DNA of 64,000 nucleotides from Lachnospiraceae bacterium (GCA_045616785.1 JAZLHJ010000055.1:9715-73714); one strand, 5' to 3'. Positions 10,824 to 31,082 are shown, counted from the first letter of the stretch. Translations and numbers: made by a program. Notes: generated by a model from the letters alone, not told the origin.

Positions 10824-10847
10824 AAAAAGCCCCATAAAAGGGAGGAT

Positions 10848-10872
10848 GCCGGGTAAACTTTGTTTACCCGGC
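10848..10872. terminator. Hairpin between convergent genes (possible bidirectional terminator)
   Basis: Perfect 10-bp stem GCCGGGTAAA / TTTACCCGGC with a 5-nt loop. It lies between the lipid kinase (+) and the cyclophilin (-). The flanking U-tracts are weak. Confidence 0.55.
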
Positions 10873-11022
10873 ATATATTATGAAAAAGTTTAATAAACAA
10901 TGAAGAATGCGTATTTGGAAGTACATTTGTAACTCTATAATCAGATTATAGAAATACAATGTTTCCAAATAATGTTATGTAAATTAATATTTTTTAAATG
11001 AAATGTGAACAAATTGTGAACG

Positions 11023-11605: not shown

Positions 11606-12313
11606 GTGTTCAATATTACGTATAATCAGAATATGTGTGTGATTCTTACGGATAATCCGGCTGTTGCCGTACAGGAAAATGAAAACGGACGCGCCGTAAT
11701 CGGCGTTTACGGGAGAACTGCGCCAATTGACAGGTTCACCGGCATTATGTATCTTACAGATACCTTTCTTGTGGGAAAGAACCTTCTTGCGCTGTCCTAT
11801 GCAAGAAAAAAGAATGAGCCGATGGTGGTTGCAAAGTCAGATAGACTTCTTGTCCGCGAGACGTGCCTTTCGGATATTCCTGCGTTCTATGAGATTTATG
11901 AAGATGAGGAAATCTGTAAGTACATGGAAGGACTTCATAGAGACCCTGATGAGGAGGAAGCGTACCTGAAGAAATATATAGAGGAGGTTTATCCTTTCTA
12001 TAACTACGGTATGTGGACTTTGATATACAAAGAGACGGGAGAAATTATAGGAAGAGCCGGCCTTGAACCCAAAGGAGACAAGGCAGAACTCGGATATCTG
12101 ATTTCGAAAAAGTTCCGTGGGATGGGACTTGGAACAGAGGCTGTAAATCTTGTACTTGAATATGCGGAAGAAATGCAGCCCTCCGAGGAGATTTGTGCAA
12201 GAGTAAGAAGTGACAATGAGGTTTCCGTTCATATTCTGGAAGCGTTCTTTTTTGAAAAAGAAAAAGAAGAAAACGGGCTGATATACTACAAACTTCCTAA
12301 AAATAGAAATTGA
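11606..12313 (+). CDS. GNAT-family N-acetyltransferase (RimJ/RimL-like); start uncertain
   Basis: The C-terminal ~160 aa form a GNAT fold (IGRAGLEP..LGYLISKKFRGMGLGTEAV). The track start at 11606 is a GTG. A perfect TATAAT at 11621-11626 lies inside the N-terminal extension, so the true start may be ATG 11633 (near-leaderless) or ATG 11822 (163 aa). Confidence 0.65.
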   Translation: MFNITYNQNMCVILTDNPAVAVQENENGRAVIGVYGRTAPIDRFTGIMYLTDTFLVGKNLLALSYARKKNEPMVVAKSDRLLVRETCLSDIPAFYEIYEDEEICKYMEGLHRDPDEEEAYLKKYIEEVYPFYNYGMWTLIYKETGEIIGRAGLEPKGDKAELGYLISKKFRGMGLGTEAVNLVLEYAEEMQPSEEICARVRSDNEVSVHILEAFFFEKEKEENGLIYYKLPKNRN

Positions 12314-12338
12314 TTAGAAAATATCAAGGTGATAGAAT
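12310..12338 (+). promoter_or_regulatory. Sigma-A-type promoter candidate for the 12.4-21.7 kb gene block
   Basis: -35 TTGATT (12310-12315), 17-nt spacer, extended -10 TGaTAGAAT (12330-12338). Located 37 nt upstream of ATG 12375, which is preceded by the RBS-like AAAGGGGA. Confidence 0.5.
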
Positions 12339-12374
12339 ATCTAAATGTAAAATAATTACAAAAAGGGGAAAATT

Positions 12375-13802
12375 ATGAGAAAGAAAATTGCGTCGCTTGT
12401 GGGCTTCGTGCTTGCGGTTGCTCTTGCGTTTTGCGTTCTTCCCGGGATGACGGTAAGAGCCGACAAGACAAGTAACCAGAATGTTCTTGCTGCAAGAAAC
12501 GGTGTTGTAAGAGTAATTTATTACTCGAATACCGGAATGTTTATCGGTTCTGCCTACGGTGTAGGAACTCCGGGTGAGATGACCGATACATTTGTTACCT
12601 GTTATCACGTTGTAAATCCGTATTTCAGTAACAGTGAGAAGTATGACTGCCTGTATGTATCTACCGAGGATTCGATTCAGGATCATCTCTATAAGGTAAG
12701 CGTAATATATACAGATGCCAAGCATGATATTGCAATAATCAGAACTGATGAGAAAGTTGAAGGCAGATATGCTCTTAAGCTTGTTCCCAGTGAGTATGTA
12801 GAGCCGACAATGGGTGCGTATGTTCTTGGTTATCCCGGTATTTCCGATAATGTTACGGATGTAACTTACTATAACGGAGATTTGTCTTCTCTTCTTGAAG
12901 ACCAGACAATTACAACCGGAACAATCACAAGAACAAATGTTGTATCCGATGACGTCAGATTCTATCAGGTTGATGCCGATATCAACCATGGTAATTCCGG
13001 CGGCCCATGTGTTACGCTTGACGGATACGTAATCGGAACAAATGATGCGATTATGGCAGACTCCGAAGGCGGTAACTATCTCGGACTTGTTACCTGCGGA
13101 GATTATATTATCGATGCATTGTTTACCCTCGGAATTAAGTATGAAACAGTAACCGCTGAGGATATGGAGGGTGCTGTCGATACGACTGCAATCGCTACCA
13201 ATCCCACAGGAAACGATGTTGTGGAAATCAATCCCGATCAGGTTAAGTACGACCAGCAGCTTGAGGAGATGGAGAAGAGCAATGACAGAATGAATACTCT
13301 TCTTGTGGTTCTCATTATTGTTGTATGTGTAATCGTTGTAGCACTCATAGTTTTCATTATTGTTTTTTCAGGCAAGAACAGAAAGCTTCAGAACCAGATT
13401 GCAAGGGAAAGAGAGCAGTATATGTCAACGGGACGTACAGAGTATCGTCCGCCCGTGCCGCAGGGAAATACTTCTGCTTTTGCTCCGCCCAAGATGCCGA
13501 GAATTACAGGTCTGTCAGGTATGTATGCGAATAAGACTTTTGAAATCTCGGGTAACATGATAATGGGAAGAAGCCAGGCAAGATGCCATCTTGTATATCC
13601 TCAGAATACGCCCGGAATCAGCAATGTTCATCTTGAACTTCAGAATACCGGCGGTAAGCTTTATCTCATGGATAAAGGATCTTCCTACGGTACAGTAGTA
13701 AGAGGAACCATCAAACTTGAGGCCGGAAAACCGTATGCACTTTCTGACGGTGAAGTATTCTATCTTGCATCACCGGAGAATTCCTTCAGGGTTAATTACT
13801 GA
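12375..13802 (+). CDS. Secreted trypsin-like (S1) serine protease fused via a TM helix to a cytoplasmic FHA domain
   Basis: 475 aa. Signal peptide MRKKIASLVGFVLAVALAFCVLPGMTVRA. Catalytic triad contexts TCYHVV (His), KHDIAIIR (Asp) and GNSGGPCV (Ser). TM helix LLVVLIIVVCVIVVALIVFIIVF. C-terminal FHA signature GRSQARCHLVY..ISNVHLEL..GKLYLMDKGSSYGTVVRG. Confidence 0.85.
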   Translation: MRKKIASLVGFVLAVALAFCVLPGMTVRADKTSNQNVLAARNGVVRVIYYSNTGMFIGSAYGVGTPGEMTDTFVTCYHVVNPYFSNSEKYDCLYVSTEDSIQDHLYKVSVIYTDAKHDIAIIRTDEKVEGRYALKLVPSEYVEPTMGAYVLGYPGISDNVTDVTYYNGDLSSLLEDQTITTGTITRTNVVSDDVRFYQVDADINHGNSGGPCVTLDGYVIGTNDAIMADSEGGNYLGLVTCGDYIIDALFTLGIKYETVTAEDMEGAVDTTAIATNPTGNDVVEINPDQVKYDQQLEEMEKSNDRMNTLLVVLIIVVCVIVVALIVFIIVFSGKNRKLQNQIAREREQYMSTGRTEYRPPVPQGNTSAFAPPKMPRITGLSGMYANKTFEISGNMIMGRSQARCHLVYPQNTPGISNVHLELQNTGGKLYLMDKGSSYGTVVRGTIKLEAGKPYALSDGEVFYLASPENSFRVNY

Positions 13803-13804
13803 TA

Positions 13805-15547
13805 ATGAAACACGTTCTTTTATATCTTAAGAAATACAGAAAAGAGACAATACTGGCACCTTTATTTAAGATGCTTGAAGCTTCACTTGAATTATTTGTC
13901 CCCCTTGTAATGGCCGATATCATTGATATCGGCATTGCAGGTGGGGACAATTCTGTTGTAATACAGAAAAGCCTTGTTCTTATCGGACTTGCTTTTCTTG
14001 GACTCACAGCATCGATTACGGCACAGTATTTTGCGGCAAAGGCAGCAGTCGGATGCGCTGCCTCTCTGCGGGCCGGACTGTTTGAACATATTCAGTCTTT
14101 CTCGTGCAGTACGCTTGATAAAATAGGCACATCGACTCTTATCACAAGACTTTCGGCCGACACAGCCCAGGTACAAAACGGCGTAAATATGGTTCTCAGA
14201 CTGTTTCTGAGGTCGCCTTTTATTGTGCTCGGAGCCATGATAATGGCATTTACGGTAGACCAAAAGGGAGCTGTCATTTTTGTCGTTCTTATTCCTGCGC
14301 TCAGTATTGTTGTGTTCGGAATAATGGGAATTACAATTCCTCTTTACAGAAAAGTATCCGGGAAACTCGACAGCGTTCTTTTGTCGACCAGAGAGAATCT
14401 GTCCGGAGTCCGCGTTATCAGAGCATTCGGAAAAGAGAACGCCGAAACGGATTCATTTGACAAAAAGAATGAAATACTGACACGTGCGTCAGAAAAAGTT
14501 GGAAGAATTTCCGCTTTGCTTAATCCGCTGACGCTTGTAATTGTTAATATTGCGACAGCTGTTTTAATATATGTCGGTGCGATTCGCGTTGACTCCGGAA
14601 ACCTTTCGCAGGGACAGGTTGTGGCACTTGTCAATTACATGTCACAGATTCTTGTTGAGCTTGTTAAGCTTGCCAATCTGATTGTGACAATTACAAAATC
14701 GCTTGCGAGTGCGCGCAGAATAGAGGAAGTTTTCGGATATGAAAGTAAGGAAGACGGAGAGGTTACCGAACTAAACAAGGACGGGAATACCCCGTTTCTT
14801 TCCTTTGAAAACGTTAGCCTTAAATACAGTGAGGGGGCTGATGAAGCGCTTTCGGGTATCAGCTTTGAAGCACGTATGGGAGAAACAATCGGAATAATAG
14901 GAGGTACGGGAAGCGGAAAAAGTTCTGTTGTTAATCTGATTGCGGGTCTCTACAATGCTACAGACGGAACAGTAATGTTAGGCGGGAGAAATGCAGAAAG
15001 CGTATCCCCGGGAGTTCTTCTTCAAAACGTTTCGCTGGTTCCGCAGAAGGCTGTTCTTTTTAAAGGCACAATCCGCGAAAATCTTCTTATGGGAGCAGGA
15101 GAAAACGTAACAGAAGAAGATATTATGCAGGCACTTAAGGTATCACAGTCCTATGATTTTGTTATGGAGAAGGGGCTTGATTTTGTAGTTGAAGGTGAAG
15201 GAAAGAATCTCTCCGGCGGACAAAAGCAGAGACTTTGCATAGCGAGGGCACTCCTTCGAAAAGGCCGTGTTCTTATTCTTGATGACAGCTCTTCTGCACT
15301 TGATTATGCGACAGATGCTGCGCTCAGAAAAGCTGTTGCAGCCATGCCGGGAGACAGGATAATCGTGACTGTGTCACAGAGAACCTCTTCCGTAATGCAT
15401 GCAGACAGAATTCTTGTTCTTGATGATGGCAGACTTGCCGGTATCGGGACACATGAAAAGCTTCTTAAAAGCTGTGAAGTATACAGGGAAATCCATGAGT
15501 CACAGTTTGGAAAGGAGGAAAAACATGAAAAGCAGTCTTGTATTTAA
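13805..15547 (+). CDS. ABC exporter, fused TMD-NBD half-transporter with degenerate NBD
   Basis: 580 aa. Six-helix type-I exporter TMD, Walker A GGTGSGKSS, canonical signature LSGGQKQRL. Walker B is LILDDS (Asp instead of the catalytic Glu) and the H-loop is VSQRTS (Gln instead of His). Starts 2 nt after the protease-FHA stop. Confidence 0.9.
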   Translation: MKHVLLYLKKYRKETILAPLFKMLEASLELFVPLVMADIIDIGIAGGDNSVVIQKSLVLIGLAFLGLTASITAQYFAAKAAVGCAASLRAGLFEHIQSFSCSTLDKIGTSTLITRLSADTAQVQNGVNMVLRLFLRSPFIVLGAMIMAFTVDQKGAVIFVVLIPALSIVVFGIMGITIPLYRKVSGKLDSVLLSTRENLSGVRVIRAFGKENAETDSFDKKNEILTRASEKVGRISALLNPLTLVIVNIATAVLIYVGAIRVDSGNLSQGQVVALVNYMSQILVELVKLANLIVTITKSLASARRIEEVFGYESKEDGEVTELNKDGNTPFLSFENVSLKYSEGADEALSGISFEARMGETIGIIGGTGSGKSSVVNLIAGLYNATDGTVMLGGRNAESVSPGVLLQNVSLVPQKAVLFKGTIRENLLMGAGENVTEEDIMQALKVSQSYDFVMEKGLDFVVEGEGKNLSGGQKQRLCIARALLRKGRVLILDDSSSALDYATDAALRKAVAAMPGDRIIVTVSQRTSSVMHADRILVLDDGRLAGIGTHEKLLKSCEVYREIHESQFGKEEKHEKQSCI

Positions 15548-17261
15548 GAGAGTTCTTAAATATGTCAGGAAGCATGGTTTTTTCATTGCTCTTTCGATAC
15601 TTGCCTCTGCAATCTGTGTGGCACTTACTCTTTATGTTCCGATTCTTATCGGAAGAAGCGTTGACCTTATCATATCTGCCGGCAATGTTGATTTTGAGGG
15701 ACTAAAAAGTATTCTCGGACTTATTGTGGCAGCGGTTTTGATAAATGCCTTATCGCAGTGGATAATGAATGTTCTGTGTAACCGAATTACCTATGTTACC
15801 GTAAGGAATATCAGAAAAGATCTCTTTGCCAAAATTCAGATACTTCCGATTTCGTATATCGATTCACACTCGCACGGCGATCTCGTGAGCAGAATGATAT
15901 CGGATGTTGATACTTTTTCGGAAGGTCTTCTGATGGGATTTTCACAGCTTTTTACAGGTGTTCTTACGATAATCGGTACTCTTGTGTTTATGCTTTCCAT
16001 TAACTGGAAGATTGCAATCATTGTTGTAATTCTGACACCACTGTCACTTTTTGTTGCGGCTTTTGTGTCGAAGAAAACATACGGGATGTTCCGCCTTATG
16101 TCAAAAGAACGAGGAGAACAGACTGATTTTATAAATGAGACAATAGGTAACGAGAAGACAATAAAGGCTCTTCACTATGAGGAAAAAGCAAACGAAAAAT
16201 TCGCCCTGATAAACGAGAGGCTTAAGAAAAGTTCTCTTTCGGCAATATTCTTCTCCTCTGTCACGAATCCGTCGACGCGTTTCGTTAATTCCGTTATTTA
16301 CGCGGTTGTAGCTCTCTTTGGAGGAATGGCTGTAATATCCGGAATGTTTACAGTCGGTTATCTGACCTCTTTTCTCAGCTATGCAAACCAGTATACCAAG
16401 CCCTTTAATGAAATTTCCGGTGTTATTACGGAGCTTCAAAATGCGCTTGCCTGCGCGGGACGCGTATTTGAAATGCTTGATGAAAGTGACGTTGTTGACA
16501 TCAGCGGTGACGAACTTGAAGAAACAGACGGAACAGTGGACATTAAGAATGTATTTTTTTCCTATACGGAGGACAAACCGCTTATTGAGAATCTGAACCT
16601 TTCTGCAGGGAAAGGCGACAGGATTGCGATTGTCGGACCGACAGGCTGCGGAAAGACGACAATAATCAATCTTATTATGAGATTCTATGATGTAAAAAGC
16701 GGTGAGATTATTTTCTCGGGCAGAAATATTAAGGAGCTTAATCAGAGGAGCTATAGGAAGAATATCGGAATGGTTCTTCAGGATACCTGGCTTAAGGAAG
16801 GCACAATTCTGGATAATATCACGTTCGGAAAAGAGAATGCATCAAGGGAGGAAGCAGTAAAAGCGGCAAAAGCTGCCATGGCACATAGTTTTATAAGGCG
16901 TCTTCCCGATGGGTATGATACGTATATTACCGAAAACGGCGGAAATCTTTCGCAGGGGCAAAAGCAGCTTTTATGTATTGCACGTGTAATGCTGGCGCTT
17001 CCGGAGGTTCTTATTCTTGATGAAGCGACTTCATCAATAGATACGAGAACCGAAATGAAAATCCAGAAAGCGTTTAATACAATGATGGAAGGACGGACAA
17101 GTTTTATCGTTGCGCACCGCCTTTCAACGATAAAAGAAGCGGATCTTATCCTTGTCATGAAAGACGGTCATATTATGGAAGTAGGCAGTCACGATGAGCT
17201 TCTTTCGAAAAAGGGATTCTATCACACTTTGTATTTCAGTCAGTTTGAGGGTAATGAGTAA
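15525..17261 (+). CDS. ABC exporter, fused TMD-NBD half-transporter with consensus NBD
   Basis: The track ORF starts at 15399, but AAAGGAGG (15511-15518) precedes the in-frame ATG at 15525 (MKSSLVFKRVLKY). Walker A GPTGCGKTT, Walker B LILDEATS and H-loop VAHRLS are canonical. The signature is degenerate, LSQGQKQL. Overlaps the upstream gene by 23 nt. Confidence 0.9.
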   Translation: MKSSLVFKRVLKYVRKHGFFIALSILASAICVALTLYVPILIGRSVDLIISAGNVDFEGLKSILGLIVAAVLINALSQWIMNVLCNRITYVTVRNIRKDLFAKIQILPISYIDSHSHGDLVSRMISDVDTFSEGLLMGFSQLFTGVLTIIGTLVFMLSINWKIAIIVVILTPLSLFVAAFVSKKTYGMFRLMSKERGEQTDFINETIGNEKTIKALHYEEKANEKFALINERLKKSSLSAIFFSSVTNPSTRFVNSVIYAVVALFGGMAVISGMFTVGYLTSFLSYANQYTKPFNEISGVITELQNALACAGRVFEMLDESDVVDISGDELEETDGTVDIKNVFFSYTEDKPLIENLNLSAGKGDRIAIVGPTGCGKTTIINLIMRFYDVKSGEIIFSGRNIKELNQRSYRKNIGMVLQDTWLKEGTILDNITFGKENASREEAVKAAKAAMAHSFIRRLPDGYDTYITENGGNLSQGQKQLLCIARVMLALPEVLILDEATSSIDTRTEMKIQKAFNTMMEGRTSFIVAHRLSTIKEADLILVMKDGHIMEVGSHDELLSKKGFYHTLYFSQFEGNE

Positions 17262-17345
17262 ATTTTTTTTATGGAATTTTTATCGCATTTGTGAGAAAAT
17301 AACTCTATATATTCAGTGACAGAAGGAAAGGGGGCGCGTATAACT

Positions 17346-19583
17346 ATGGTTGTTCAGGCTTTAGACATCTTTGTTCTTGTTCTTGCCGTAGTGGTTCTGT
17401 ATATCGGCTGCTCCGTTCTCTGGTCAAAAAGCAGGAAGACAAGTGAGGTTTATCTTCTTGCAGGTCTTTGCTTTTCTTCTGCACTCTGGTCTGTCGGAGA
17501 AGGTGCAATACCTTTCATATCCGACATGTCGATTGCCAAGTATTTCCGTCTCTTAACGCCTATCGGAGTTGTATCGTATCTTGCGCTTGCTCTTGTTATC
17601 CTCTTAAGTTTCAGTAATGTTAAACGGACGATAAGAATCTGTATGGAGATATTCTCCATGTTCGGTTTTATCGTTGCTCTATTAATGATTCTCGGAAATG
17701 ATATTACCGAGGAAGTTGTTAAATTGGGATTTCTCGTGGGAAACGAGAAGAATTCTGTCTGGCCGTCGATATATACAATTTATATTTATGTGATGGTTGC
17801 CTTCATTTTTGTCATGATTATCTTCATGATAAATTCCAAAAAGAACAGTATTCACTCCTTCGGAAGAAAACTTGTTCCGGCGCTGTTTCTCATAGTAATC
17901 GGACCGACACTTAATATGATTCTTCCTGAAAACGCGACTGTAAGAATTCCTTCTGCGGTAGTGGCACAGGCTGTCAGTGCAATGATTTTATACAGAACGG
18001 TGATGTATATCTGGAAAACGAAGTTTAATCCTTCGAATATGGCAGAATATATTTACAGTTCCATGACAATACCGATTCTTGTTTTTGATGAGCTCCAGAA
18101 GCTCCACATTGTTAATAAGGCTGCGATTGATTTCTTTGAACTTGATGAGAAAAAAGTAAATGACGAAGAGTACACGATAGACGAGCTCATATCTGTTAAA
18201 GATCATGTTGATTTGTTCTTTTTTGAGGGTAACGGATATACCTTCATGACAGAAAGGGCATCTGACGGAAAGGTACCGATTAATGTTACAGTCAATAAAA
18301 TCATAGATTCCTATGAGGATCTTATCGGTTATATTGTGTCCGTTAAGGATCTTTCAAAAGAGTATGAAATGATGGGGCAGCTTAAACTGTCCAAAGAGGC
18401 GGCTGAAGTTGCAAACCGCTCGAAGAGTGCGTTTCTTGCCAATATGTCGCATGAGATTCGTACTCCGATGAATGCCATAATCGGTTTCTCTGAGCTGATT
18501 CTTAAAATGGACCCGCCGCCGGGAATTCTTGATTATGCGCGTGATATCAAGACGTCTTCGCAGAGTCTTCTTGCGATTATCAATGATATTCTTGATATTT
18601 CAAAGCTTGAATCCGGTAAGATGGAGCTTGTCTGCGGTAACTATTATCCATCCAGGCTCTATCAGGATGTCTATATGATAATTAAGACCCAGACCATGAA
18701 AAAGGATCTGAGGCTTGAGATTAATCTTGATCCGGAAATGCCTAACCAGCTCTACGGTGATAAGGTTCGAATAAGAGGAATTCTCATTAACCTTCTTAAC
18801 AATGCCGTTAAGTATACGATGGTCGGTACAATATCGCTTGATGTGAAGGTTTTGAAGAAGGAAAACGGAATTGCGTCTCTGGAATTTCGCGTAAAGGATA
18901 CAGGCTCCGGAGTAAAACCCGAAGAAATAGGCAAGCTGTTTGAAGCTTTTGCCCAGGTTGATCAGAAGGTTCATGAGGGCGTTGAAGGAACAGGTCTCGG
19001 ACTCCCGATTGTCAAGGGATATATCGATCTTATGGGCGGAACAATAAATGTTGAGAGTACCTACGGTGTCGGAACAACATTTATCGTTAATATTGACCAG
19101 AAAATTATTGATGATAAACCTATGGATTCCGCGTTTGAAGAGAAGAAGCTCGAAACGGAATACAGCATAGGAACATTAAAGATTGATAATACAAAGGTCC
19201 TTATTGTTGATGACAGCAGACTGAACCTTAAGGTTGCCGCCAATATTATGCTTCAGTACGGTCTTGAAGTGGATACGGCGCCAAGCGGGGCAGAAGCCAT
19301 TGAAAAGTGTAAGAAGTGCCAGTACAACATTGTCTTTATGGATCAGATGATGCCCGAAATGGATGGTATCGAAGCCATGAACAGAATCAGGGATATTAAT
19401 CCCGACTATGCAAAGGGCGGAAAGTCCAAGATGGTAATTCTTACAGCAAATGCAATAAACGGAATGCGTGCCGAGCTTCTTGAAAAAGGATTTGATGAAT
19501 TCCTCGGTAAGCCGATGAATTATAAACAGCTTGAAAGAATTCTCGTTCAGTTCTCACCTGAAGAGAATATCAGATATGAATAG
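17346..19583 (+). CDS. Hybrid sensor histidine kinase / response regulator (multi-TM sensor, PAS-like, HisKA, HATPase, REC)
   Basis: The track ORF starts at GTG 17316. ATG 17346 follows the purine-rich GGAAAGGGGG, so the start is ambiguous between the two. About 6-7 TM helices with very short loops. H-box [17 protein letters not shown]-box [10 protein letters not shown]-boxes KDTGSGV and [10 protein letters not shown]-terminal receiver [21 protein letters not shown]. No HPt domain seen. Confidence 0.9.
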
Positions 19584-19601
19584 CATTAGGAGTATTAACA
19601 A

Positions 19602-20969
19602 ATGAAACCCATCAGGTTCTATCTGGCAATGGGTGTGGGAAAGCTTGCGAGAACAACGCAGAGAATTCTCGGAATGAATGCAAGCTTCTTCCCCGGAAAA
19701 CTTGCCGTAAAGATTTGCCCGGATTTTTTAAGTCATGTGGGCACCCCCGAAAAACTGATTTGTGTTACGGGGACAAACGGAAAAACAACTGTTTCAAATC
19801 TTCTTGTGGATCTTCTTGCCGCTGAAGGTATTGATACAATTAACAATCATACCGGCTCTAATACTGTCGGCGGTGTTGCAACGGCTCTTCTTACCGGTGC
19901 GCGTTTCTCCGGAAAATGTAAGAAAGAATGGGGCGTTCTCGAAATCGACGAGAGAAGCTCTATGCATATTTACCCCAGAATAAAACCCGGGTATGTTTTG
20001 TGTACCAATCTTTTCAGGGATTCCATTTTAAGAAACGGAAGTCCTGAATATATTGCCGGAATCGTATCTGACAACATGTATGAGAAAACAAAGCTTATTC
20101 TTAATGCCGACGACCTCATAAGCGGCAGTGTTGCTCCTTCAAATGAGCGTGTTTATTATGGAATTAAGCAGATGGCAACAGATACAAAAGAATGCCGCAA
20201 TATTGTTAATGACTGCCAGATATGTCCGAAGTGCGCAACAAAGCTTGAGTATGAATATGTCAGATATCATCAGATCGGAAAGGCATATTGCCCGGGCTGC
20301 GGATTTAAGTCGCCAAAGCCGGATTATGAAGCAGAAGTACATGCTGATGAAGGCTTTATGTACATTACGGCAAAGGGTGAAACCGAGAAGTATAAGCTTG
20401 TCAATAACAGTATTTTTAATATTTACAATCAGCTTGCCGTAACATCTCTTCTTAGGGAAATGGGCCTTTCTTCGGATGCGATTCGTGATGGATTCTCAAG
20501 ACTTCACATCCCTGATTTCAGGTATACGAAATTCGAAGCAGGCGGAATGACTGTTGTAGATATGATGGCAAAAGAGCATAATCCGATTGCCTGCTCCGTT
20601 GTATTTGATTATGTGTCGCATGAACCCGGAGTTAAGGAAATACTGTTTCTTCTTGATGACGAAACTCCGAGGGAAAGCATGTGCTGGATTTATGACTGTG
20701 ATTACGAGAAGCTTAATTCTCCTCTTATTCGTCATATTGTTATCCCCGGAACAAGGTCGCTTGACCAGAAACTTCGTCTTCTTATTGCGGGTGTTCCCGA
20801 AGAGAAAATCAGTATCGGTATGGAGGATACGAAGGCTCCGTCATACCTTAATTTCGACGGCGCCGACACTGTTTTTGTTCTCCATCAGCACTGGAAGCCC
20901 GAGATGGATAAGAAGGTTGTCGGGATAATTCGCGAAATGCTTGAAGAAAGGGGAAAAAAGAATGAGTAA
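19602..20969 (+). CDS. Mur-ligase-family protein, MurT-like (lipid II isoglutaminyl synthase ligase subunit homologue)
   Basis: 455 aa. ATP P-loop VTGTNGKTT, a Cys4 ribbon CQICPKC..CPGCGF at the MurT position, and a C-terminal DUF1727-type domain with WIYDCDYEKL. The conserved LNDNAADGRD loop of MurT reads LLDDETPRES here. Confidence 0.8.
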   Translation: MKPIRFYLAMGVGKLARTTQRILGMNASFFPGKLAVKICPDFLSHVGTPEKLICVTGTNGKTTVSNLLVDLLAAEGIDTINNHTGSNTVGGVATALLTGARFSGKCKKEWGVLEIDERSSMHIYPRIKPGYVLCTNLFRDSILRNGSPEYIAGIVSDNMYEKTKLILNADDLISGSVAPSNERVYYGIKQMATDTKECRNIVNDCQICPKCATKLEYEYVRYHQIGKAYCPGCGFKSPKPDYEAEVHADEGFMYITAKGETEKYKLVNNSIFNIYNQLAVTSLLREMGLSSDAIRDGFSRLHIPDFRYTKFEAGGMTVVDMMAKEHNPIACSVVFDYVSHEPGVKEILFLLDDETPRESMCWIYDCDYEKLNSPLIRHIVIPGTRSLDQKLRLLIAGVPEEKISIGMEDTKAPSYLNFDGADTVFVLHQHWKPEMDKKVVGIIREMLEERGKKNE

Positions 20970-21684
20970 GATTATTTTGGAATCTTTTTTTCCTGAAGTA
21001 GCAAACCTGTATGGCGATAACGGAAATATGCGTTATCTGAAGCTTTGTATTCCGGATGCGGAAACTGTAATTGACAGACTGAACGAGGAGCCGTATTTCG
21101 TTAAGAATACGCCGTCATTTATTGCGATGAGCCCGATGTCCGAAAGGGCGCAGGAGCTTGTAATTGCAAGACTTTTCCCTTATAGGGAGAGAATTGCCGA
21201 GCTCATAGAAATCGGATGCATTTTCCTTATGACCGGAAATGCCATGGAAATTTTCTTTGACGAAATTCAGAATGAAGACGGTACAAGCATAAAAGGACTC
21301 GGCATTTTCCATTACGTTGCGAAGAGGAAAATGTTTGACAGATATAACAGACACTGTATGGGTGATTTCGGAGATATCCGTATCGTAGGCTACAAGAATC
21401 AGTTTACACATGCATACGGTGACAATTCGAAGGAGTTCTTTTTGAGTGTGACAAAGGGAGACGGAATTAACCGTGAGTCTCAGCTTGAAGGGATAAAGAG
21501 AAATAATTTTTTCGGAACTTATCTTCTCGGACCGATACTTATTCAGAACCCGAAATTCACCAAATATATCCTCTCGCTTCTTGACAGAAGTGACGTAAGT
21601 CTGCCGTTTGAGGAGACAATAATGGCTGCCTATGAGAGGCGCAGGGAAGAGTACGAAGAAATGGAATTCGGACTGTACAGTTAA
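20962..21684 (+). CDS. GatD-like (CobQ-type glutamine amidotransferase-like) subunit with substituted catalytic Cys and His
   Basis: The track ORF starts at TTG 20941. ATG 20962 (MSKIILESFF) follows the purine-rich RBS-like GAAAGGGGAAAAAAG (20946-20960) and overlaps murT-like by 8 nt. Collinear with S. aureus GatD as I recall it: NLYGDNGN, IVGYKNQ, GTYLxGPIL. It reads LMTGNA where GatD has ICGGYQ, and GTYLLGP where GatD has GTYLHGP. Confidence 0.75.
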   Translation: MSKIILESFFPEVANLYGDNGNMRYLKLCIPDAETVIDRLNEEPYFVKNTPSFIAMSPMSERAQELVIARLFPYRERIAELIEIGCIFLMTGNAMEIFFDEIQNEDGTSIKGLGIFHYVAKRKMFDRYNRHCMGDFGDIRIVGYKNQFTHAYGDNSKEFFLSVTKGDGINRESQLEGIKRNNFFGTYLLGPILIQNPKFTKYILSLLDRSDVSLPFEETIMAAYERRREEYEEMEFGLYS

Positions 21685-21705
21685 ATGCCAAATAAAATTT
21701 TTACA

Positions 21706-21737
21706 AAAAGCGTCTTGCAAAAAGACGCTTTTTTTCA
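21706..21737 (+). terminator. Strong intrinsic terminator ending the 12.4-21.7 kb block
   Basis: 11-bp stem AAAAGCGTCTT / AAGACGCTTTT with loop GCAAA, followed by a T-run. Confidence 0.85.
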
Positions 21738-21779: not shown

Positions 21780-22343
21780 ATGCAGACCGGAGTGGAAAAA
21801 ATCGAAATTGTCCAGATACATGGTGATGAAAGCATTATTAATATGCCGGATGATTCCTGGCTTTGTAATTCTCATCCCGTAACTCTCAGAGTGAAAACAA
21901 CAATTTGCGGAGAGAATGCATCAGGACTTAAGGTGTCACTGAATCTTGCACCTCTTTTCTACAACGGAGCGAAGCTTCCCCGTATCGAGGTTCAGATTCT
22001 GGCAGGGCTGATTCCTGCCGGTGAGAACATGCTTGTTACCGAAATTCCGGTGAAAAATCCGAGACTTTGGTTCCCGGAAGAACTCGGAGACAGGAATATT
22101 TACGAGCTTATTGTAACCGTGAAGGAGCGTGGGGCTTTAGGCGGTGGAGAGGCGGCCAAAAAGATAAACGAGATGAAGCCGCTTTGTGAAGAAAGGTTTA
22201 ATATCGGACTGTGTAATGCTTGTGAGGTGCCGGGGGAATCGGGGAAATACCGTGTAAACGGTTATGATTTCAAACCGGATGAATCTGCTTACGAAAACTG
22301 TGATGCATTTATCAGCGAATGCGTCAGACTGCACATTTTGTGA
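21780..22343 (+). CDS. Small protein resembling an internal fragment of a GH2 glycosidase (beta-sandwich region only); possible gene relic
   Basis: 187 aa with a good RBS (AGGAGG 7 nt upstream). VKNPRLWFPEELGDRNIYELIVTV and ERFNIGL..YRVNGYDFKP resemble the NPxLW..G.PxLY and FGxR..xxNG segments that precede the catalytic TIM barrel in GH2 enzymes. No barrel or catalytic Glu region follows. Confidence 0.45.
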   Translation: MQTGVEKIEIVQIHGDESIINMPDDSWLCNSHPVTLRVKTTICGENASGLKVSLNLAPLFYNGAKLPRIEVQILAGLIPAGENMLVTEIPVKNPRLWFPEELGDRNIYELIVTVKERGALGGGEAAKKINEMKPLCEERFNIGLCNACEVPGESGKYRVNGYDFKPDESAYENCDAFISECVRLHIL

Positions 22344-22354
22344 AGGAGAAGAAA

Positions 22355-24580
22355 ATGGGAATCAGTTACTTTGAGAAAGAGCGAATTTTCAAGCTCGATA
22401 CCAAGAATTCGAGCTATGTGATGGGCGTTGTCGACAAGGAAAATTTCCTTGGACATGTATACTTTGGCAAGAGAATAGAAAGCGCGGATGTGGCGTATCT
22501 CATGAGAATTTATGAGCCGCCTTTTGTTCCGAGCACAAATGACAGAGACAGACTGTCTTTCCTTGATGCGTTTCCGATGGAGTTCCCGACACACGGCCTG
22601 GGAGATTTCAGAAATGATGCAATAAGCGTTAAGACAAAGGGCGGTCATACAGCACTTTCGCTTTCCGTAAAAAGTCATGAAATTTATAAAGGCAAAAAAG
22701 GCATTGCCGGACTTCCCGCAACATTCGGAAGTGAAGACGAATGCGAAAGCCTTGAGATAACACTTGCCGATGAACTTGTAGGAATTGAAGTCGTTCTTAC
22801 CTACTCCGTGTTTGAGGATTGTGACGCTGTAACAAGATCTGTCAAGGTTCGTAACTGCGGGAAGGATTCTTTTTTCCTGACAAAGGTTATGACGCTGTCA
22901 TTTGATATGGACAACGAAGACTATGACATTCTGACTCTTCACGGCTCATGGGCGCGTGAACGTCACATTAACAGGAGAAGACTTGCACCGGGATATCAGG
23001 GAGTTTCTTCGCTTCGCGGTGAAACCAGTCACCAGGAGCATTCATTCCTTGCACTTATGTCACATGGCGCCGATGAGGATAGCGGAGATGTATATGGCTT
23101 TTCATTCATCTATTCCGGAAATTTTGTTGCCGGTGTAAATGTAAATCAGTTTGATAACCTGAGAACTCTTGTCGGAATTAATCCCGAGGACTTTACGTGG
23201 AAGCTTTCGGAAGGTGAAGAGTTCCTTGCTCCCGAAGGAGTTATGGTTTACTCCGGTGAAGGAATCGGAAATATGACAAGGTCCTTCCATGACCTTTTCA
23301 GAAATCACCTGATAAGAGGTGAGTACAAGGACAGGAAGCGTCCGATTCTGATTAACAACTGGGAAGCGACTTATTTTGACTTTAATACCGAGAAGCTTAT
23401 CGGAATTGCCAAAGAAGCTTCAAAGCTCGGAATTGAAATGCTTGTTATGGATGATGGCTGGTTCGGTCACAGAAATGATGACAATTCCTCGCTCGGAGAC
23501 TGGTTTGTTAATGAATCAAAGCTTCAGGGCGGACTTTCGCATCTTGTATTCGAGGTTAACAAGCTCGGAATGAAATTCGGAATCTGGTTCGAACCTGAAA
23601 TGATTTCTCCCGACTCGAAATTATACGAAGCGCATCCCGACTGGGCGATTGCTATTCCCGGAAGAAGAGCAGGTCTTTGCCGTAACCAGTATGTACTTGA
23701 TTTATCACGTGATGAAGTTGTTGACTACACCTTCGGACAGCTTTCGAAAATTCTCGAAAGTGCGAATATCGAATATGTGAAGTGGGACATGAACAGACAG
23801 CTTGCCGACCTCGGAAGCATCTCTCTTCCCTCTGACAGGCAGGGAGAACTTTTCCACAGATACGTTCTGGGAGTATACAGACTGCAGGAAATGCTTATTA
23901 CGAAATTCCCGCACCTTCTCCTCGAGAACTGCTCCGGCGGCGGTGCAAGATATGATGCCGGAATGTTATATTACAGTCCGCAGATATGGTGCTCTGATGA
24001 TACCGATGCTGTCGAGAGACTTGAAATCCAGGAAGGCACTTCGCTTGTATTCCCGTTATCATCAATGGGGGCGCATGTAAGTGACTGCCCGAACCATACA
24101 GTCGGAAGGGTAACTCCTTTTGAAACAAGAGGATATGTTGCACTTGCCGGAACCTTTGGCTACGAGCTTGATGTAACGCGCATTCCCGAAAACGACAGAA
24201 ATCTTATTCCCGGTCAGATCAAAATGTATCACAAATACAATGACCTTGTGAGACTCGGTGATTATTACAGAATTGCTTCCTACAGCAAGAATCATGAATT
24301 TGATGCCTACATGACTGTTTCAAAAGACAAGAGTGAAGCTCTCTTTACTTTTGTCCAGGTTCTTAACAGACCCAATCAGCATTCACGCAAAGTAAAATTC
24401 AAAGGTCTTAACCCTTCTTCGTCTTACCGGCTCACCTATGTTGACGATAAGTTTGACTCATCAAAGGGCGAGATTCAGGACCGTGTTGTAAAGGGCGATG
24501 TTCTCATGAACTGCGGTCTTCTCATCGCAAACCCCTGGGGTGACTTTACCGGAAAGCTCATCTACCTTCAGGAAGTGTAA
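22355..24580 (+). CDS. Alpha-galactosidase, GH36
   Basis: The track ORF starts at 22319, but GAAGGAG precedes the in-frame ATG at 22355 (MGISYFEKE). GH36 motifs present: KWDMNR (nucleophile Asp), CSGGGARYD, WCSDDTDAVERL (acid/base). Confidence 0.93.
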   Translation: MGISYFEKERIFKLDTKNSSYVMGVVDKENFLGHVYFGKRIESADVAYLMRIYEPPFVPSTNDRDRLSFLDAFPMEFPTHGLGDFRNDAISVKTKGGHTALSLSVKSHEIYKGKKGIAGLPATFGSEDECESLEITLADELVGIEVVLTYSVFEDCDAVTRSVKVRNCGKDSFFLTKVMTLSFDMDNEDYDILTLHGSWARERHINRRRLAPGYQGVSSLRGETSHQEHSFLALMSHGADEDSGDVYGFSFIYSGNFVAGVNVNQFDNLRTLVGINPEDFTWKLSEGEEFLAPEGVMVYSGEGIGNMTRSFHDLFRNHLIRGEYKDRKRPILINNWEATYFDFNTEKLIGIAKEASKLGIEMLVMDDGWFGHRNDDNSSLGDWFVNESKLQGGLSHLVFEVNKLGMKFGIWFEPEMISPDSKLYEAHPDWAIAIPGRRAGLCRNQYVLDLSRDEVVDYTFGQLSKILESANIEYVKWDMNRQLADLGSISLPSDRQGELFHRYVLGVYRLQEMLITKFPHLLLENCSGGGARYDAGMLYYSPQIWCSDDTDAVERLEIQEGTSLVFPLSSMGAHVSDCPNHTVGRVTPFETRGYVALAGTFGYELDVTRIPENDRNLIPGQIKMYHKYNDLVRLGDYYRIASYSKNHEFDAYMTVSKDKSEALFTFVQVLNRPNQHSRKVKFKGLNPSSSYRLTYVDDKFDSSKGEIQDRVVKGDVLMNCGLLIANPWGDFTGKLIYLQEV

Positions 24581-24614
24581 AACCATATTCGGCAGAAATC
24601 ACAAACAGAATTCA

Positions 24615-24655
24615 GACAGGACCCCATTCCGCTATAGGACGGGGTCCTGTCTTTA
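24615..24655 (+). terminator. Intrinsic terminator after the GH36 gene
   Basis: 11-bp GC-rich stem GACAGGACCCC / GGGGTCCTGTC with a 15-nt loop, followed by TTTAT. Confidence 0.65.
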
Positions 24656-24662
24656 TGTGGCG

Positions 24663-24758
24663 CGTTCGCGGAGCTGCCGGTGAATAATCACATCTTTTTT
24701 CGGCTCGCGAACGTATGCCACCACCCTACAGAAAAACAGAGTTTGAGTATCGCGAACG
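24663..24758. promoter_or_regulatory. Three copies of a TCGCGAACG-type motif (one inverted), candidate operator set or RNA structure
   Basis: CGTTCGCGg at 24663-24671 (inverted, 8/9), TCGCGAACG at 24705-24713 and TCGCGAACG at 24750-24758 (45-nt spacing). This is a locally GC-rich island in an otherwise AT-rich intergenic region upstream of the epimerase operon. Confidence 0.3.
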
Positions 24759-24792
24759 AGAATTGTCTCTCCCACATGTGAAAAAAATACAC

Positions 24793-24822
24793 TTGACGGA
24801 AACGGAAAATGTGTGGCAATAT
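24793..24822 (+). promoter_or_regulatory. Promoter candidate for the epimerase-GH130-esterase operon
   Basis: -35 TTGACG (24793-24798), 18-nt spacer, extended -10 TGgCAATAT (24814-24822). Located 40 nt upstream of ATG 24863. Confidence 0.4.
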
Positions 24823-24862
24823 AAACGACAAAAATGGTTATACACTTTGGAGGGTGTTATTT

Positions 24863-26047
24863 ATGGGAATGTTAAGTGAAGTTAAGGAGAACCTTACAGG
24901 TAACATTATCCCCTTCTGGAAAGGACTGCGGGATAATGAACATGGCGGGTACTACGGGTATCTCAGCTATGATCTTGAGCTTGACAAAAAGGCGGTTAAG
25001 GGCTGCATTCTTAACAGCAGAATCACATGGTTTTTTGCAAATGCCTACAGTCTTCTGCATGACGAAAGTCTTCTGGATGAGGCAAGACACGGGTATGAGT
25101 TCCTGAGGGATTACTGTTATGACAAGGAAAACGGCGGAGTATACTGGTCGATGACCTATGACGGAAAACCGGAGGATACGACAAAGCATACCTACAATCA
25201 GGCGTTTGCTGTGTACGCACTTTCTTCGTACTACGAGGCAAGCGGCGACAAGGAAGCACTTGAACTTGCTTATAAGCTTTTTGATGTGATTGAGTCAAAA
25301 TGCACGGACGACATCGGATATCTTGAAGCTTTTGATGTGAATTTCAAACCGGCTTCAAACGAGAAGCTTTCCGAGAACGGAGTTATGGCTGCCAAGACGA
25401 TGAATACACTTCTTCATGTTTTCGAAGGATATTCCGAACTGTACAGGGTAGACCATAATGAGAAAGTCGGAAAGAGACTTGAGTTTATCATGGATACTTT
25501 TGCAGACAAGGTTTACAATCCTGAGCTTCACAGACAGGAAGTTTTCTTTGACGAGAACTATAACACGATAATCGATTTGTATTCCTACGGACATGACATC
25601 GAGACTGCATGGCTTGTTGACAGGGGGACAGAGATTCTCGGGAAAAAAGAATACATCGAGAAGATGGGAAAAATCACCGGGGACCTCACTGCCAACGTGT
25701 ACAAGGTTGCCTTTAACGGAGAAGCTCTTAACAATGAATGCGATAAGGGCGTTGTTAATACAACAAGAGTATGGTGGGTACAGGCCGAGACTGTTCTCGG
25801 ATTTCTGAACGGTTATGAGAAGTCTCCCGAGATAAAAGAGTATCTCGAAGCAGCAAAGAATGAATGGAACTACATAAAGACGCACATTATTGACAAACGT
25901 CCGGGCTCCGAATGGCTTTCCGAAGTCGATATCGATAATAATCCGACAAGCAGAAAACCTATTGTTGAACCATGGAAGTGTCCTTACCACAACGGAAGAA
26001 TGTGCCTTGAAGTAATAAAACGTGCAACCAGAATAAATCTTGACTAA
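24863..26047 (+). CDS. Cellobiose/mannobiose 2-epimerase (N-acylglucosamine 2-epimerase superfamily)
   Basis: The track ORF starts at 24809, but GGAGGG (24849-24854) precedes the in-frame ATG at 24863. The N-terminus [49 protein letters not shown] closely matches the Ruminococcus albus cellobiose 2-epimerase N-terminus as I remember it. Confidence 0.88.
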
Positions 26048-26061
26048 ACAGGAGGAGAGAA

Positions 26062-27234
26062 ATGTTACATCCGCAGTACTATGTTGAGCAGGCAAAGCTT
26101 GACAGACTTTATGCCAGAAAAAATGTGAAATCCAGCTTTTATAACGGAATCTATGACAGATATCAGTTTCCGGTTCTTACAAGAGAGCATATTCCGCTCA
26201 GCTGGAAATACGATCTTAACCCCGAGACAAATCCGTACTTCATGGAGAGACTCGGAGTAAATGCAGTAATGAATTCCGGTGCGATATACTTAAACGGCAA
26301 ATATTATCTTGTTGCAAGAATCGAAGGTGCTGACAGAAAGAGTTTCTTTGGTGTTGCAGAAAGTGACAACGGAATTGACGGCTTTAAGTTCTGGGATTAC
26401 CCGATTCTTCTTGATGATACCTGCCCTGAAGAGACAAATGTTTATGACATGAGACTTACACAGCATGAGGACGGATACATCTACGGTGTATTCTGCTCAG
26501 AGAGCAAGGATAAGACAAACCCGGATCTTTCTGCAGCAGTTGCGGCAGCGGGAATTGTCAGAACAAAGGACCTTAAGACCTGGGAGAGACTTGATAACCT
26601 TAAAACTCTTAATTCTCCCCAGCAGAGAAATGTTGTTCTTCATCCTGAATTCATCAACGGCAAGTATGCATTTTATACAAGACCGATGGATGATTTCATT
26701 GATACAGGTTCAGGCGGCGGAATCGGCTTTGGTCTTTGCGATGATATCTGCCATGCTGTTATTGGCGAGGAGATTATTACTTCAAAGAGACGTTATCATT
26801 TCATTACCGAAGCCAAAAACGGTGCAGGTGCTGTTCCGATAAAGACACCTAAGGGCTGGATTCATATTGCGCACGGCGTACGTAATACTGCAGCCGGCCT
26901 TCGCTATGTAATCTATGCTTTTGCAACTGACTTAAACGATCCTTCCAAAGTTATCGCAGAGCCTTCGGGGCTGCTTATCGGACCCCGCGGCGCTGAAAGA
27001 GTCGGCGATGTAAGCAATGTTGTATTCACAAACGGCGCAATTGCAAGAGATAACGGCGATGTATATATTTACTATGCATCAAGCGATACAAGAATGCATG
27101 TTGCAACCACAACAATTGACAAGCTTATGGACTATGTGTTTAACACACCCGAGGATCCCGGACGCTCTGTGCTCTGCGTTTCACAGAGATGCGACCTCAT
27201 AAAGAGGAATATGGAATTCCTTTCGAAGCAATGA
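26062..27234 (+). CDS. GH130 4-O-beta-D-mannosyl-D-glucose phosphorylase type
   Basis: 390 aa. Long collinear similarity to the remembered Bacteroides fragilis MGP sequence ([84 protein letters not shown]). Confidence 0.9.
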
Positions 27235-28508: not shown

Positions 28509-28524
28509 CACCATCAACTTAACA

Positions 28525-28570
28525 AAAGAGTCGTTAACTTTTTTAGTTAACGGCTCTTTTTGTTTTTTGT
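28525..28570 (+). terminator. Intrinsic terminator after the esterase gene
   Basis: 15-bp stem AAAGAGTCGTTAACT / AGTTAACGGCTCTTT (one G-U pair), TTTTT loop, then TTGTTTTTTG. Confidence 0.8.
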
Positions 28571-28682
28571 GTAATATGGGCTTGTTAATTGTTACCTAAC
28601 AGGGAGTTGTAACAAGTGTTAAAAAAGACGTTCGTTAATTTGTGCAAGATTTACAAAAATGCTCTGAACGCACCGAAAATGC

Positions 28683-28711: not shown

Positions 28712-28730
28712 AGGAGTGTGCATATTTATG

Positions 28731-30351: not shown

Positions 30352-30354
30352 CGA

Positions 30355-31053: not shown

Positions 31054-31082
31054 TGTTTTGACAGAAAAGGTATGGTAAGAAA

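Follow-up and report, generated by a model that had tools for sequence, protein, structure and literature searches.

We analysed a stretch of 64,000 nucleotides (nt) from a Lachnospiraceae bacterium (GCA_045616785.1 JAZLHJ010000055.1:9715-73714), which we call the window and whose positions we count from its first letter. The subject of this article is a block of six genes on its + strand, which ends in a MurT-like Mur ligase (MurT*) and a GatD-like protein without glutaminase residues (pseudo-GatD, GatD*). In our opinion, there is a fairly good case that the block is a composite of three units, and that the last of them, the MurT*/GatD* pair, is a glutamine-independent amidation pair. Judged by comparison of related genomes, two of the units are conserved: unit A, a protease-FHA protein with an ABC heterodimer, restricted to a clade of Lachnospiraceae, and unit B, MurT* with GatD*, which is widespread. 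The ABC pair, the hybrid histidine kinase between the two units and the protease-FHA protein each add a further member to a known kind; what is new is the MurT*/GatD* family, as a variant of a known system.

The six genes are the following.

12375-13802, + strand: membrane-anchored S1 (trypsin/HtrA-like) serine protease with an FHA domain (Pfam Trypsin_2, PF13365, 4.7e-18; FHA, PF00498, 3.6e-10); unit A

13805-15547, + strand: ABC half-transporter A, with a degenerate ATP site (ABC_membrane and ABC_tran, PF00664 and PF00005); unit A

15525-17261, + strand: ABC half-transporter B (ABC_membrane and ABC_tran, PF00664 and PF00005); unit A

17346-19583, + strand: hybrid sensor histidine kinase (HisKA, HATPase_c and Response_reg; N-terminus with multiple transmembrane (TM) segments and a weak 7TM match)

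19602-20969, + strand: MurT-like Mur ligase, MurT* (Mur_ligase_M and MurT_C; E = 7e-59 to Staphylococcus aureus MurT over 395 residues); unit B

20962-21684, + strand: pseudo-GatD, GatD* (class I glutamine amidotransferase fold; E = 9e-14 to S. aureus GatD); unit B

According to our reading, three independently inherited units would follow one another in the same direction along the leading strand of the chromosome of an uncultured Lachnospiraceae bacterium, placed between a housekeeping region (murB-rapZ-whiA through to DAGK, PPIase and GNAT genes) and a mannan-utilisation cluster. The kinase would be a lineage-specific insertion in a variable gap between units A and B. The three units may be read as one long transcript, yet they would form no single conserved machine.

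A GatD-like protein that has lost its glutaminase

The known relative of unit B is the lipid II isoglutaminyl synthase MurT/GatD of S. aureus (SA1708/SA1707), Streptococcus pneumoniae and Streptococcus pyogenes (PDB 6gs2, 6fqb, 9sq9). As in that enzyme, the two genes overlap and murT comes before gatD. MurT* has the central and C-terminal Mur-ligase domains, the GTNGKT motif, E108 and the Cys4 zinc ribbon, while GatD* has the class I fold, the extra C-terminal helix, the GP..P interface stretch and R128. However, the unit B family lacks the inter-subunit catalytic triad and both oxyanion-hole glycines, has an invariant Glu in place of MurT R348, does not conserve the DNAAD motif and scores far under the NCBIfam equivalog cut-offs. 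MurT* of the window reaches 227.4 and 165.8 bits where 800 are required, and GatD* reaches 58.8 bits where 450 are required and 54.6 where 400 are.

The differences concern exactly those residues whose roles have been defined in S. aureus. There, Asp349 of MurT completes a triad with GatD across the subunit interface (PMC6113224), G60 and G95 of GatD are the glycines of the oxyanion hole (PMC5871853), and R128 of GatD captures glutamine (PMC6113224, PMC5871853). The variant D349N of MurT had no activity in the standard in vitro assay of lipid II amidation (PMC6113224). In GatD* of the window C94 is replaced by Gly, H189 by Leu, G95 by Asn and G60 by Met. R128 is kept as R127 (a call that rests on the pairwise HMMER alignment and the alignment with relatives, not on the column count over 150 representatives given below), and so is the GP..NP interface stretch.

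This is not a peculiarity of one protein. In 28 relatives T-G-N replaces I-C-G and L/I-G-P replaces H-G-P without exception, with Gly92 and Asn93 invariant. Among the best 150 cluster representatives, drawn from 1.84 billion proteins clustered at 50% identity, the nucleophile position holds no Cys at all (132 Gly, 13 Ser, 2 Ala, 2 Asn), and the position of H189 holds His in a single case, with Leu, Ile or Val as the family replacements. The stretch that contacts MurT (G190, P191, N196, P197) is invariant in the 28 relatives. The GatD* alignment has 28 invariant and 24 near-invariant columns, with sequences only 43-66% identical to the query. The AlphaFold model of GatD* has a pLDDT of 94.6, and the top Foldseek matches to it are 6gs2_A, 6h5e_A and 5n9m_A, with S. 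aureus GatD the best (TM-score 0.82). An initial annotation of the window, made from the sequence by a model, had already called the two genes a MurT/pseudo-GatD pair; the loss of Cys94, His189 and the oxyanion glycines bears this out and makes the GatD homologue catalytically dead.

The ligase subunit tells a different story. MurT_C (DUF1727, PF08353) is found in MurT* at 5e-20. The window protein has VTGTNGKTT and LEIDE, that is, the P-loop and the Mg-binding Glu108, and both are conserved in 79 of 79 family members. In these 79 partner proteins GTNGKTT, E108, D110, E111, N130, R133, D134 and R138 are essentially 100% conserved, and the Cys4 zinc ribbon (equivalents of C202, C205, C224 and C226) is present in 78-79. 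The position of Asp349, the residue contributed to the glutaminase triad, holds Ser in the window and, across the family, Asn in 67, Ser in 5, Thr in 5 and Asp in only 1. The R348 position is Glu in all 79.

Because the glutaminase residues are lost throughout the family and the ligase and interface residues are kept, we conclude from these alignments that MurT* and GatD* are under purifying selection as a two-subunit, ATP-dependent ligase unable to use glutamine. Compared at this level, the family has demonstrably lost the elements of the glutaminase and kept those of the ligase and the interface, and the pairing of the two proteins is obligatory. On the residues present, the pair cannot be glutamine-dependent, and it is likely to be ATP-dependent.

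Two further observations concern the architecture of the family. GatD* forms the C-terminus of longer single chains in P0241 (728 amino acids), P0259 (730), P0263 (698) and P0343 (758), and the N-terminal part of P0386 (667); all five are without the catalytic Cys and, given a size of about 700 amino acids, are presumably MurT*-GatD* fusions. In a Frisingicoccus sp. metagenome-assembled genome (L076:10748-12576, NZ_DBGCTU010000045.1), a second pair lies directly downstream of MurT*/GatD*. Its MurT-like protein is shortened to 372 amino acids, with a GTKGKTT P-loop and no zinc ribbon, and its pseudo-GatD is 43% identical to the window protein and shares the motifs TGNAME and GTYLLGP. From its sequence, this second pair is a tandem duplication with divergence. 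L076 is the only one of the 20-kb loci with a second MurT/GatD copy, and this copy is again a pseudo-pair.

Distribution of the MurT*/GatD* pair

Synteny was followed from two independent anchors, GatD* and the protease-FHA protein. For GatD*, one genome per GTDB species was scanned, and the best 80 loci of 426 matching species were taken with 10 kb of flank each. A GatD*-like protein is present in all these 426 species genomes, and at an E-value of 1e-30 or lower the family falls into 149 clusters (50% identity). The carriers belong to Lachnospiraceae, Oscillospiraceae, a CAG-245-like group and some Bacilli/Erysipelotrichaceae. Examples of genomes with GatD* are Sporobacter termitidis DSM 10068 (NZ_FQXV01), OZ007016.1, OW818648.1, CAXXEF010000001.1 and SVOB01000001.1. 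MurT* is directly upstream of GatD* in the same orientation in 80 of 80 loci, and the genes overlap by 8 nt or 4 nt where this was measured.

Beyond this partnership, the neighbours of unit B vary by lineage: rnpA-yidC-jag, a serine dehydratase gene, a polysaccharide deacetylase gene and others. In some 25-33 loci from 'uncultured Clostridia' (for example L009:1701-12914), unit B lies between aspS-mnmA and rlmN-stp-prkC-rsgA. There, stp encodes a PP2C phosphatase and prkC a PASTA Ser/Thr kinase, and the cluster that stands beside unit B in this clade is the operon of the cell-wall-sensing kinase. Nine other unit B loci have a divergent polysaccharide-deacetylase gene immediately upstream.

Database names for the family are 'hypothetical protein' or 'CobQ-like amidotransferase'. 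Indeed, no Pfam family matches GatD* of the window, no Pfam model captures its family above threshold, and neither GatD* nor MurT* reaches an NCBIfam equivalog cut-off. The murT-gatD operon has been counted as widespread in Clostridiales, without a glutaminase-dead branch being set apart (PMC6085368). Our literature search, which is not proof of absence, found no description of a natural glutaminase-dead GatD or of a clostridial MurT paralogue.

What the pair may do

The change that nature has made in GatD* is the one that has been made at the bench in S. aureus. Münch et al. reported that GatD-C94G loses glutamine-dependent amidation of lipid II and keeps NH3-dependent amidation at pH 8.5 (PMC3266927; summarised in PMC6085368), and that GatD is still needed when ammonia is supplied (PMC3266927). 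Because the natural Cys to Gly change equals C94G, we favour an ammonia-using reaction. By this analogy, MurT* would phosphorylate the alpha-carboxyl of the D-iso-Glu of lipid II using ATP, free ammonia would attack the acyl-phosphate, and GatD* would serve as an obligatory structural scaffold or gate and would hydrolyse no glutamine. Glutamine-independent, ammonia-using amidation of a peptidoglycan precursor is thus the most likely activity of the pair, with an acceptor and a nitrogen donor that we infer from the precedent. The gut, rumen and digester habitats of the carriers are rich in ammonia.

There is a different way to understand the same residues. MurT*/GatD* could be a re-purposed Mur-type ligase, in which GatD* presents another amine (an amino acid, an amino-acid amide or a polyamine) or MurT* acts on another carboxylate acceptor. 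We regard this as a real but clearly less probable alternative. It would explain why the old active site has been replaced by new invariant residues (T91-G92-N93 and E96 in GatD*, E348 in MurT*) and why R127, the equivalent of the glutamine-sequestering R128, is invariant although glutamine hydrolysis is lost. It would also suit the unconserved DNAAD motif, which has been implicated in stem-peptide recognition by S. aureus MurT (PMC6113224), and the duplication in L076, where the second pair is the more divergent. On the other hand, C94G GatD is the simplest precedent and gives NH3-dependent amidation without any new chemistry; the DNAAD difference may reflect stem peptides with meso-diaminopimelate instead of Lys; and no gene for a special substrate is conserved beside the pair. 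The third option is a functionless, decaying remnant, be it of the GatD-like gene alone or of both genes, and is in our view very improbable. It is true that all catalytic elements of the glutaminase are gone and that GatD* of the window matches no Pfam family. But decay is hard to reconcile with 149 clusters and 426 species genomes, with 28 invariant and 24 near-invariant columns at 43-66% identity, with intact open reading frames (ORFs) whose overlapping start and stop codons are conserved, with MurT-GatD* fusions, with a confidently predicted fold and with the 100% conservation of the MurT* catalytic residues.

One module or three units

The initial annotation suggested that the six genes may be one functional module. 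This would be an integrated envelope-stress or remodelling operon, in which the kinase and the FHA domain act as sensors and are linked to ABC export and to a modified tailoring step of lipid II. We disagree, and consider such an operon unlikely, because in most loci units A and B are separate, the kinase is lineage-specific and the flanking genes are equally syntenic.

Seen from unit B, the other genes are nearly always missing. Within 10 kb of unit B, the protease-FHA gene is found in 0 of 80 loci and an orthologue of the kinase also in 0 of 80, with one weak generic match to the latter. The orthologous ABC pair is near unit B in 1 of 80 (L035). In 77 of 80 there is no match to any gene of unit A, and two of the remaining three have only a weak and unrelated ABC match. 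We also considered whether ABC exporters recur upstream of MurT* as a general pattern, and this can be dismissed: the orthologous pair is found only in L035, and the ABC gene two genes upstream of MurT* in L005 is unrelated (24% identical).

Seen from the protease, unit A is coherent within its clade. In every locus with a protease-FHA orthologue of at least 46% identity and enough downstream DNA (L083-L088), the ABC pair follows directly, at 58-65% identity (6 of 6). In around 70 loci with a more distant protease-FHA gene, no orthologous ABC pair adjoins it; four of them have only weak ABC matches (20-41% identity) elsewhere in the locus. Units A and B lie close together in four lineages of one Lachnospiraceae clade, the window included, and always as A then B. 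What lies between them differs. In the window it is the hybrid kinase. In the metagenomic L086 it is a gene for a CheC/CheX-phosphatase-like receiver-domain protein (L086:15025-16332), which is unrelated to the window kinase and can be ruled out as its counterpart. In L035 there is nothing, since the ABC pair ends 34 nt from MurT* (this locus has no protease). In L083/L166 there are seven genes, including a minus-strand GH53 gene, LacI, TetR, a 39%-identical hybrid kinase, MMPL and MntP. The 8 to 10 kb next to unit A hold no unit B in L084, L085 or L087/L088. Because a mobile element (L084:15184-19914; helix-turn-helix regulator, tyrosine integrase, NikA-like protein, primase zinc ribbon and VapE-like protein) lies directly after the ABC pair of L084, the region downstream of unit A appears to be insertion-prone.

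To gauge neutral synteny, we followed a GNAT gene of unrelated function. In 7 of 7 loci this gene, in one orientation or the other, is no more than 5 kb upstream of unit A; genes for PPIase and DAGK upstream and for GH36 downstream also recur around unit A. Since unrelated flanking genes are at least as syntenic, the linkage of A and B is most simply explained by an inherited neighbourhood with a variable, insertion-prone gap, and by this comparison it is no stronger than the background collinearity of the clade.

The layout of the block, which had suggested a module, was described correctly. The six co-directional genes are indeed closely packed, and the five junctions are exactly those given by the initial annotation: +2, -23, +84, +18 and -8 nt. 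The signals that bound the block are these.

12310-12338, + strand: candidate sigma-70-like promoter (TTGATT, 17 nt, TAGAAT, with a TG extension; 9/12 plus TG)

21705-21736, both strands: bidirectional intrinsic terminator (12-bp stem between an A-run and a T-run; found by folding and scan)

The promoter-like element is present where the initial annotation had placed it, ahead of the block. However, the region holds 35 promoter-grade matches against 28.4 +/- 5.1 in shuffles, that is, no enrichment. Because equally good matches are about as frequent in shuffled sequence, the predicted site is plausible and statistically undistinguished. Its -35 hexamer shares bases with the stop codon of the GNAT gene that precedes the block (11606-12313). 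Because no terminator was found between this gene and the promoter candidate, read-through into the block from upstream is possible. The terminator at the other end (AAAAAGCGUCUU-gcaaa-AAGACGCUUUUU, then a T-run) is far more convincing, and folding statistics confirm the strong terminator that the initial annotation had placed at 21706: its hairpin has -15 kcal/mol and z = -5.7, and none of 200 shuffles was equally stable. It was absent from a standard terminator scan, which probably drew the T-run into the stem, and was seen by folding and by a custom scan. Between the two signals, terminator scans and folding find no strong terminator. The statement that the block has no internal hairpin with a T-run thus holds for strong ones; weak matches do occur within genes, at 14277, 14779 and 16048 only. 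The 84-nt gap before the kinase folds no better than shuffles, and neither this gap nor the 18-nt gap holds a promoter match of 9/12 or better. The independent promoter in the 84-nt gap, which the initial annotation had named as an argument against its module, is therefore not seen at that score. A riboswitch or leader RNA can be ruled out as an explanation of the block, as an Rfam scan of the whole window at gathering thresholds gave no match.

Co-transcription of all six genes is plausible from their spacing, but it says little about function. Almost every gene of the window is on the + strand, and strong intergenic terminators on this strand are some 3 to 17 kb apart (9908, 21729, 28557, 46144, 48965, 53032, 58026). 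Co-direction with one terminator per 9 kb is therefore the local norm and no signature of the block, and because the window is so strand-biased and strong terminators so sparse, a promoter-to-terminator layout is weak evidence.

Weighing the readings

The integrated operon has points in its favour: the tight spacing with one promoter-like site and one strong terminator; the order protease-FHA, ABC-A, ABC-B, receiver-domain protein, MurT*, GatD* in L086; the order ABC-A, ABC-B, MurT*, GatD* with gaps of at most 34 nt in L035; and, in one clade, the position of MurT*/GatD* beside stp-prkC, a source of phospho-threonine signals. But no orthologue of the kinase occupies its position in relatives, where the gap gene is unrelated (L086) or absent (L035); the units of L083/L166 are parted by seven genes, two of them for repressors and one on the minus strand; L084, L085 and L087/L088 have unit A but no unit B within 8 to 10 kb of it; in 77 of the 80 loci of unit B no gene of unit A has any match; and unrelated flanking genes are equally syntenic. 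There is also a biochemical objection, to which we return with the kinase: phosphorylation by a histidine kinase is not read by FHA domains. The initial annotation had further asked whether homologues are ever co-localised in related genomes. The answer is mixed: linkage is patchy, but in L086 five of the six genes are present, and their order is that of the window.

A composite of three units, with unit B as an amidation pair that needs no glutamine, remains our preferred reading, and the following weighs against it. L086 keeps five of six genes in order and L035 packs the ABC pair against MurT*, so that an ancestral operon later broken by insertions is possible on these gene orders. A receiver-domain signalling protein occurs in the gap between A and B in three lineages. 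The short gaps, together with the missing internal terminator and the missing promoter matches in the 84-nt and 18-nt gaps, are compatible with co-transcription of all six genes. As for unit B, the S. aureus enzyme used no ammonia at neutral pH (PMC3266927). The new invariant residues N93 of GatD* and E348 of MurT* could form a site for a different nucleophile. Lastly, our view of second copies covers the 20-kb loci only, so a canonical murT-gatD alongside could escape it.

The protease-FHA protein

From the N- to the C-terminus, the first protein of unit A has a signal-like segment, the protease domain, a single TM helix at about residues 305-330 and the FHA domain. The triad H78/D118/S208 (S208 within GNSGGP) is invariant in 29 homologues, and so are the residues of the phosphopeptide-binding face of the FHA domain (G398-R399, S416, H419). 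As the N-terminus resembles a signal and positive charges follow the one TM helix, we infer that the protease is outside the cell and the FHA domain in the cytoplasm. Hence the extracellular S1 protease with a cytoplasmic phospho-Thr reader of the initial annotation is supported as to its domains (Trypsin_2, FHA, invariant triad), and its topology is predicted. The combination of Trypsin_2 and FHA is found in at least 480 clusters and is frequent in Clostridia.

With S1 proteases of the HtrA/DegP/MarP type the protein shares the trypsin fold, the invariant His-Asp-Ser triad and GNSGGP, but it has no PDZ match, and its C-terminal TM helix and FHA domain are foreign to those families. Against the NCBIfam models for HtrA/DegP it scores 24-54 bits, with cut-offs at 350-800, and HtrA/MarP matches are all far below cut-off. 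The other half resembles actinobacterial FhaB/FipA (Rv0019c), in which a TM helix likewise leads to an FHA domain in the cytoplasm, and this domain has the canonical phospho-threonine-binding residues. The match to the NCBIfam model FhaB_Rv0019c (E = 1.5e-4, well under cut-off) is the sole sequence tie to the actinobacterial adaptors. Further actinobacterial parallels are the FHA-ABC exporter Rv1747 and the pair FhaA-MviN. As in FHA-regulated exporters of the Rv1747 type, an FHA domain adjoins an ABC exporter here; unlike in the actinobacterial adaptors and exporters, it is fused to an extracytoplasmic S1 protease and is on a separate chain from the exporter.

From position 1 to about 41.6 kb, the window has no gene annotated as a Hanks-type kinase. 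A Ser/Thr kinase encoded elsewhere in the genome would phosphorylate a partner, the FHA domain would dock on this threonine-phosphorylated membrane partner and would position or regulate the protease outside, and the protease would thereby be coupled to cytoplasmic Ser/Thr-kinase signalling. Such docking is probable by analogy with other FHA proteins, less firmly than the mechanism proposed for unit B. The adjacent exporter could be the partner and is one candidate.

The ABC exporter

In chain A the catalytic Glu of Walker B is replaced by Asp (LILDD-S) and the His of the H-loop by Gln (SQR). Chain B has a canonical Walker B (LILDEA) and H-loop (AHR) and a degenerate signature, LSQGQ. By these motifs the pair is a heterodimer with one consensus and one degenerate ATP site, each split over both chains, and the asymmetric ABC exporter of the initial annotation stands. 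The same pattern is found in the L086 and L035 orthologues. The closest solved chains are 9x46_A and TM287 (3qf4_A) for half-transporter A, and 9x46_B and TM288 (3qf4_B) for half-transporter B.

The pair thus resembles type IV exporters such as TM287/288, both in its adjoining half-transporter genes and in a degenerate site to which one chain contributes Walker B and H-loop and the other its signature motif. BmrCD, LmrCD, EfrCD and PatAB are further heterodimeric exporters with one degenerate site. The difference is that the window pair is preceded by a protease-TM-FHA gene, in one Lachnospiraceae clade; we know of no such association for any characterised heterodimeric exporter.

The hybrid histidine kinase

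The kinase was rightly described as an orphan, membrane-embedded hybrid kinase: it contains no Hpt domain, and no gene for an Hpt protein or a response regulator adjoins it. Like hybrid kinases of the BarA/TorS/ArcB type, it has HisKA, HATPase_c and a receiver in one chain; it differs from them in lacking Hpt, in an unrelated multi-TM sensor region and in scores under the equivalog cut-offs. Among 165 related loci we found no orthologue, only generic matches of 34-39% to the kinase core. The best of them is the 39%-identical core in L166, which is in another context, among the seven genes between units A and B. On this evidence, a hybrid kinase at this position is specific to the lineage of this species.

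Biochemically, the proposed link between this kinase and the FHA domain does not match. The ligand of FHA domains is phospho-threonine, which comes from Hanks-type kinases, whereas histidine kinases yield phospho-His and phospho-Asp. The output of the one is not what the other reads.

Surroundings of the block

Upstream, the window begins with an ORF of 265 amino acids (18-815) without a Pfam match at E of 1e-5 or better, which precedes ftsH-uvrC-hprK-ROK-murB-rapZ-whiA. A strong hairpin (10846-10874; 13-bp stem, 7 G-C pairs) lies between the convergent genes for DAGK (+) and a cyclophilin PPIase (-) and looks like a second bidirectional terminator; apart from the PPIase gene, this part of the window has no clear minus-strand gene.

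Downstream of the block, an ORF of 187 amino acids (21780-22343) has no Pfam match and is conserved in the same-species contigs L001 and L002. A DUF624 protein, like the neighbour at the equivalent position in L035, can be excluded, since there is no similarity. The end of this ORF overlaps by 25 nt the long-ORF start (22319) of a GH36 alpha-galactosidase gene, whose start in L001 is about 36 nt further downstream. With GH36 begins a large mannan/galactomannan-utilisation cluster (22319-41626). Its enzymes are GH36, an N-acylglucosamine-2-epimerase-like protein, GH130, a GDSL esterase and GH26 with CBM35; it further encodes DUF624, an unusually long solute-binding protein of 997 amino acids, permeases, NHL-repeat and Yip1-domain proteins and a DUF5696 protein of 860 amino acids. 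From 28.6 to 46.1 kb the window has no strong + strand terminator. In L086, the pseudo-GatD gene is followed by a BlaI/BlaR1 (Penicillinase_R/Peptidase_M56) pair for beta-lactam sensing (L086:18824-20624).

Implications

For the annotation of similar genomes there is a caution here: in a strand-biased Firmicute genome, a tight block from promoter to terminator is no evidence of a functional module.

The more important implication concerns the cell wall. Amidation of the second residue of the stem peptide sets the cross-linking of lipid II and affects sensitivity to lysozyme, defensins and beta-lactams. Muramyl-dipeptide with D-iso-glutamine is the ligand of NOD2, and amidation decides whether released muropeptides are detected by the NOD receptors of the host. 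To our knowledge, MurT/GatD has been studied biochemically and structurally only in pathogens, and there the glutaminase is active. We give about even chances to the broader proposal that MurT*/GatD* is a large unrecognised branch of peptidoglycan amidation in gut and rumen Clostridia (at least 426 species, some 150 clusters), which works without glutamine hydrolysis, either using ammonia with GatD* as a scaffold or attaching another amine, and which in one Lachnospiraceae clade may also be expressed together with an asymmetric exporter and a surface protease tethered to an FHA domain. If another amine is attached, the peptidoglycan of these commensals would carry an uncatalogued modification. 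Irrespective of whether it is ammonia or another amine, GatD* would be a natural pseudo-enzyme kept purely as a partner subunit, wall chemistry would be tied to the availability of nitrogen in the gut, and the repertoire of immune ligands derived from the microbiota would change.

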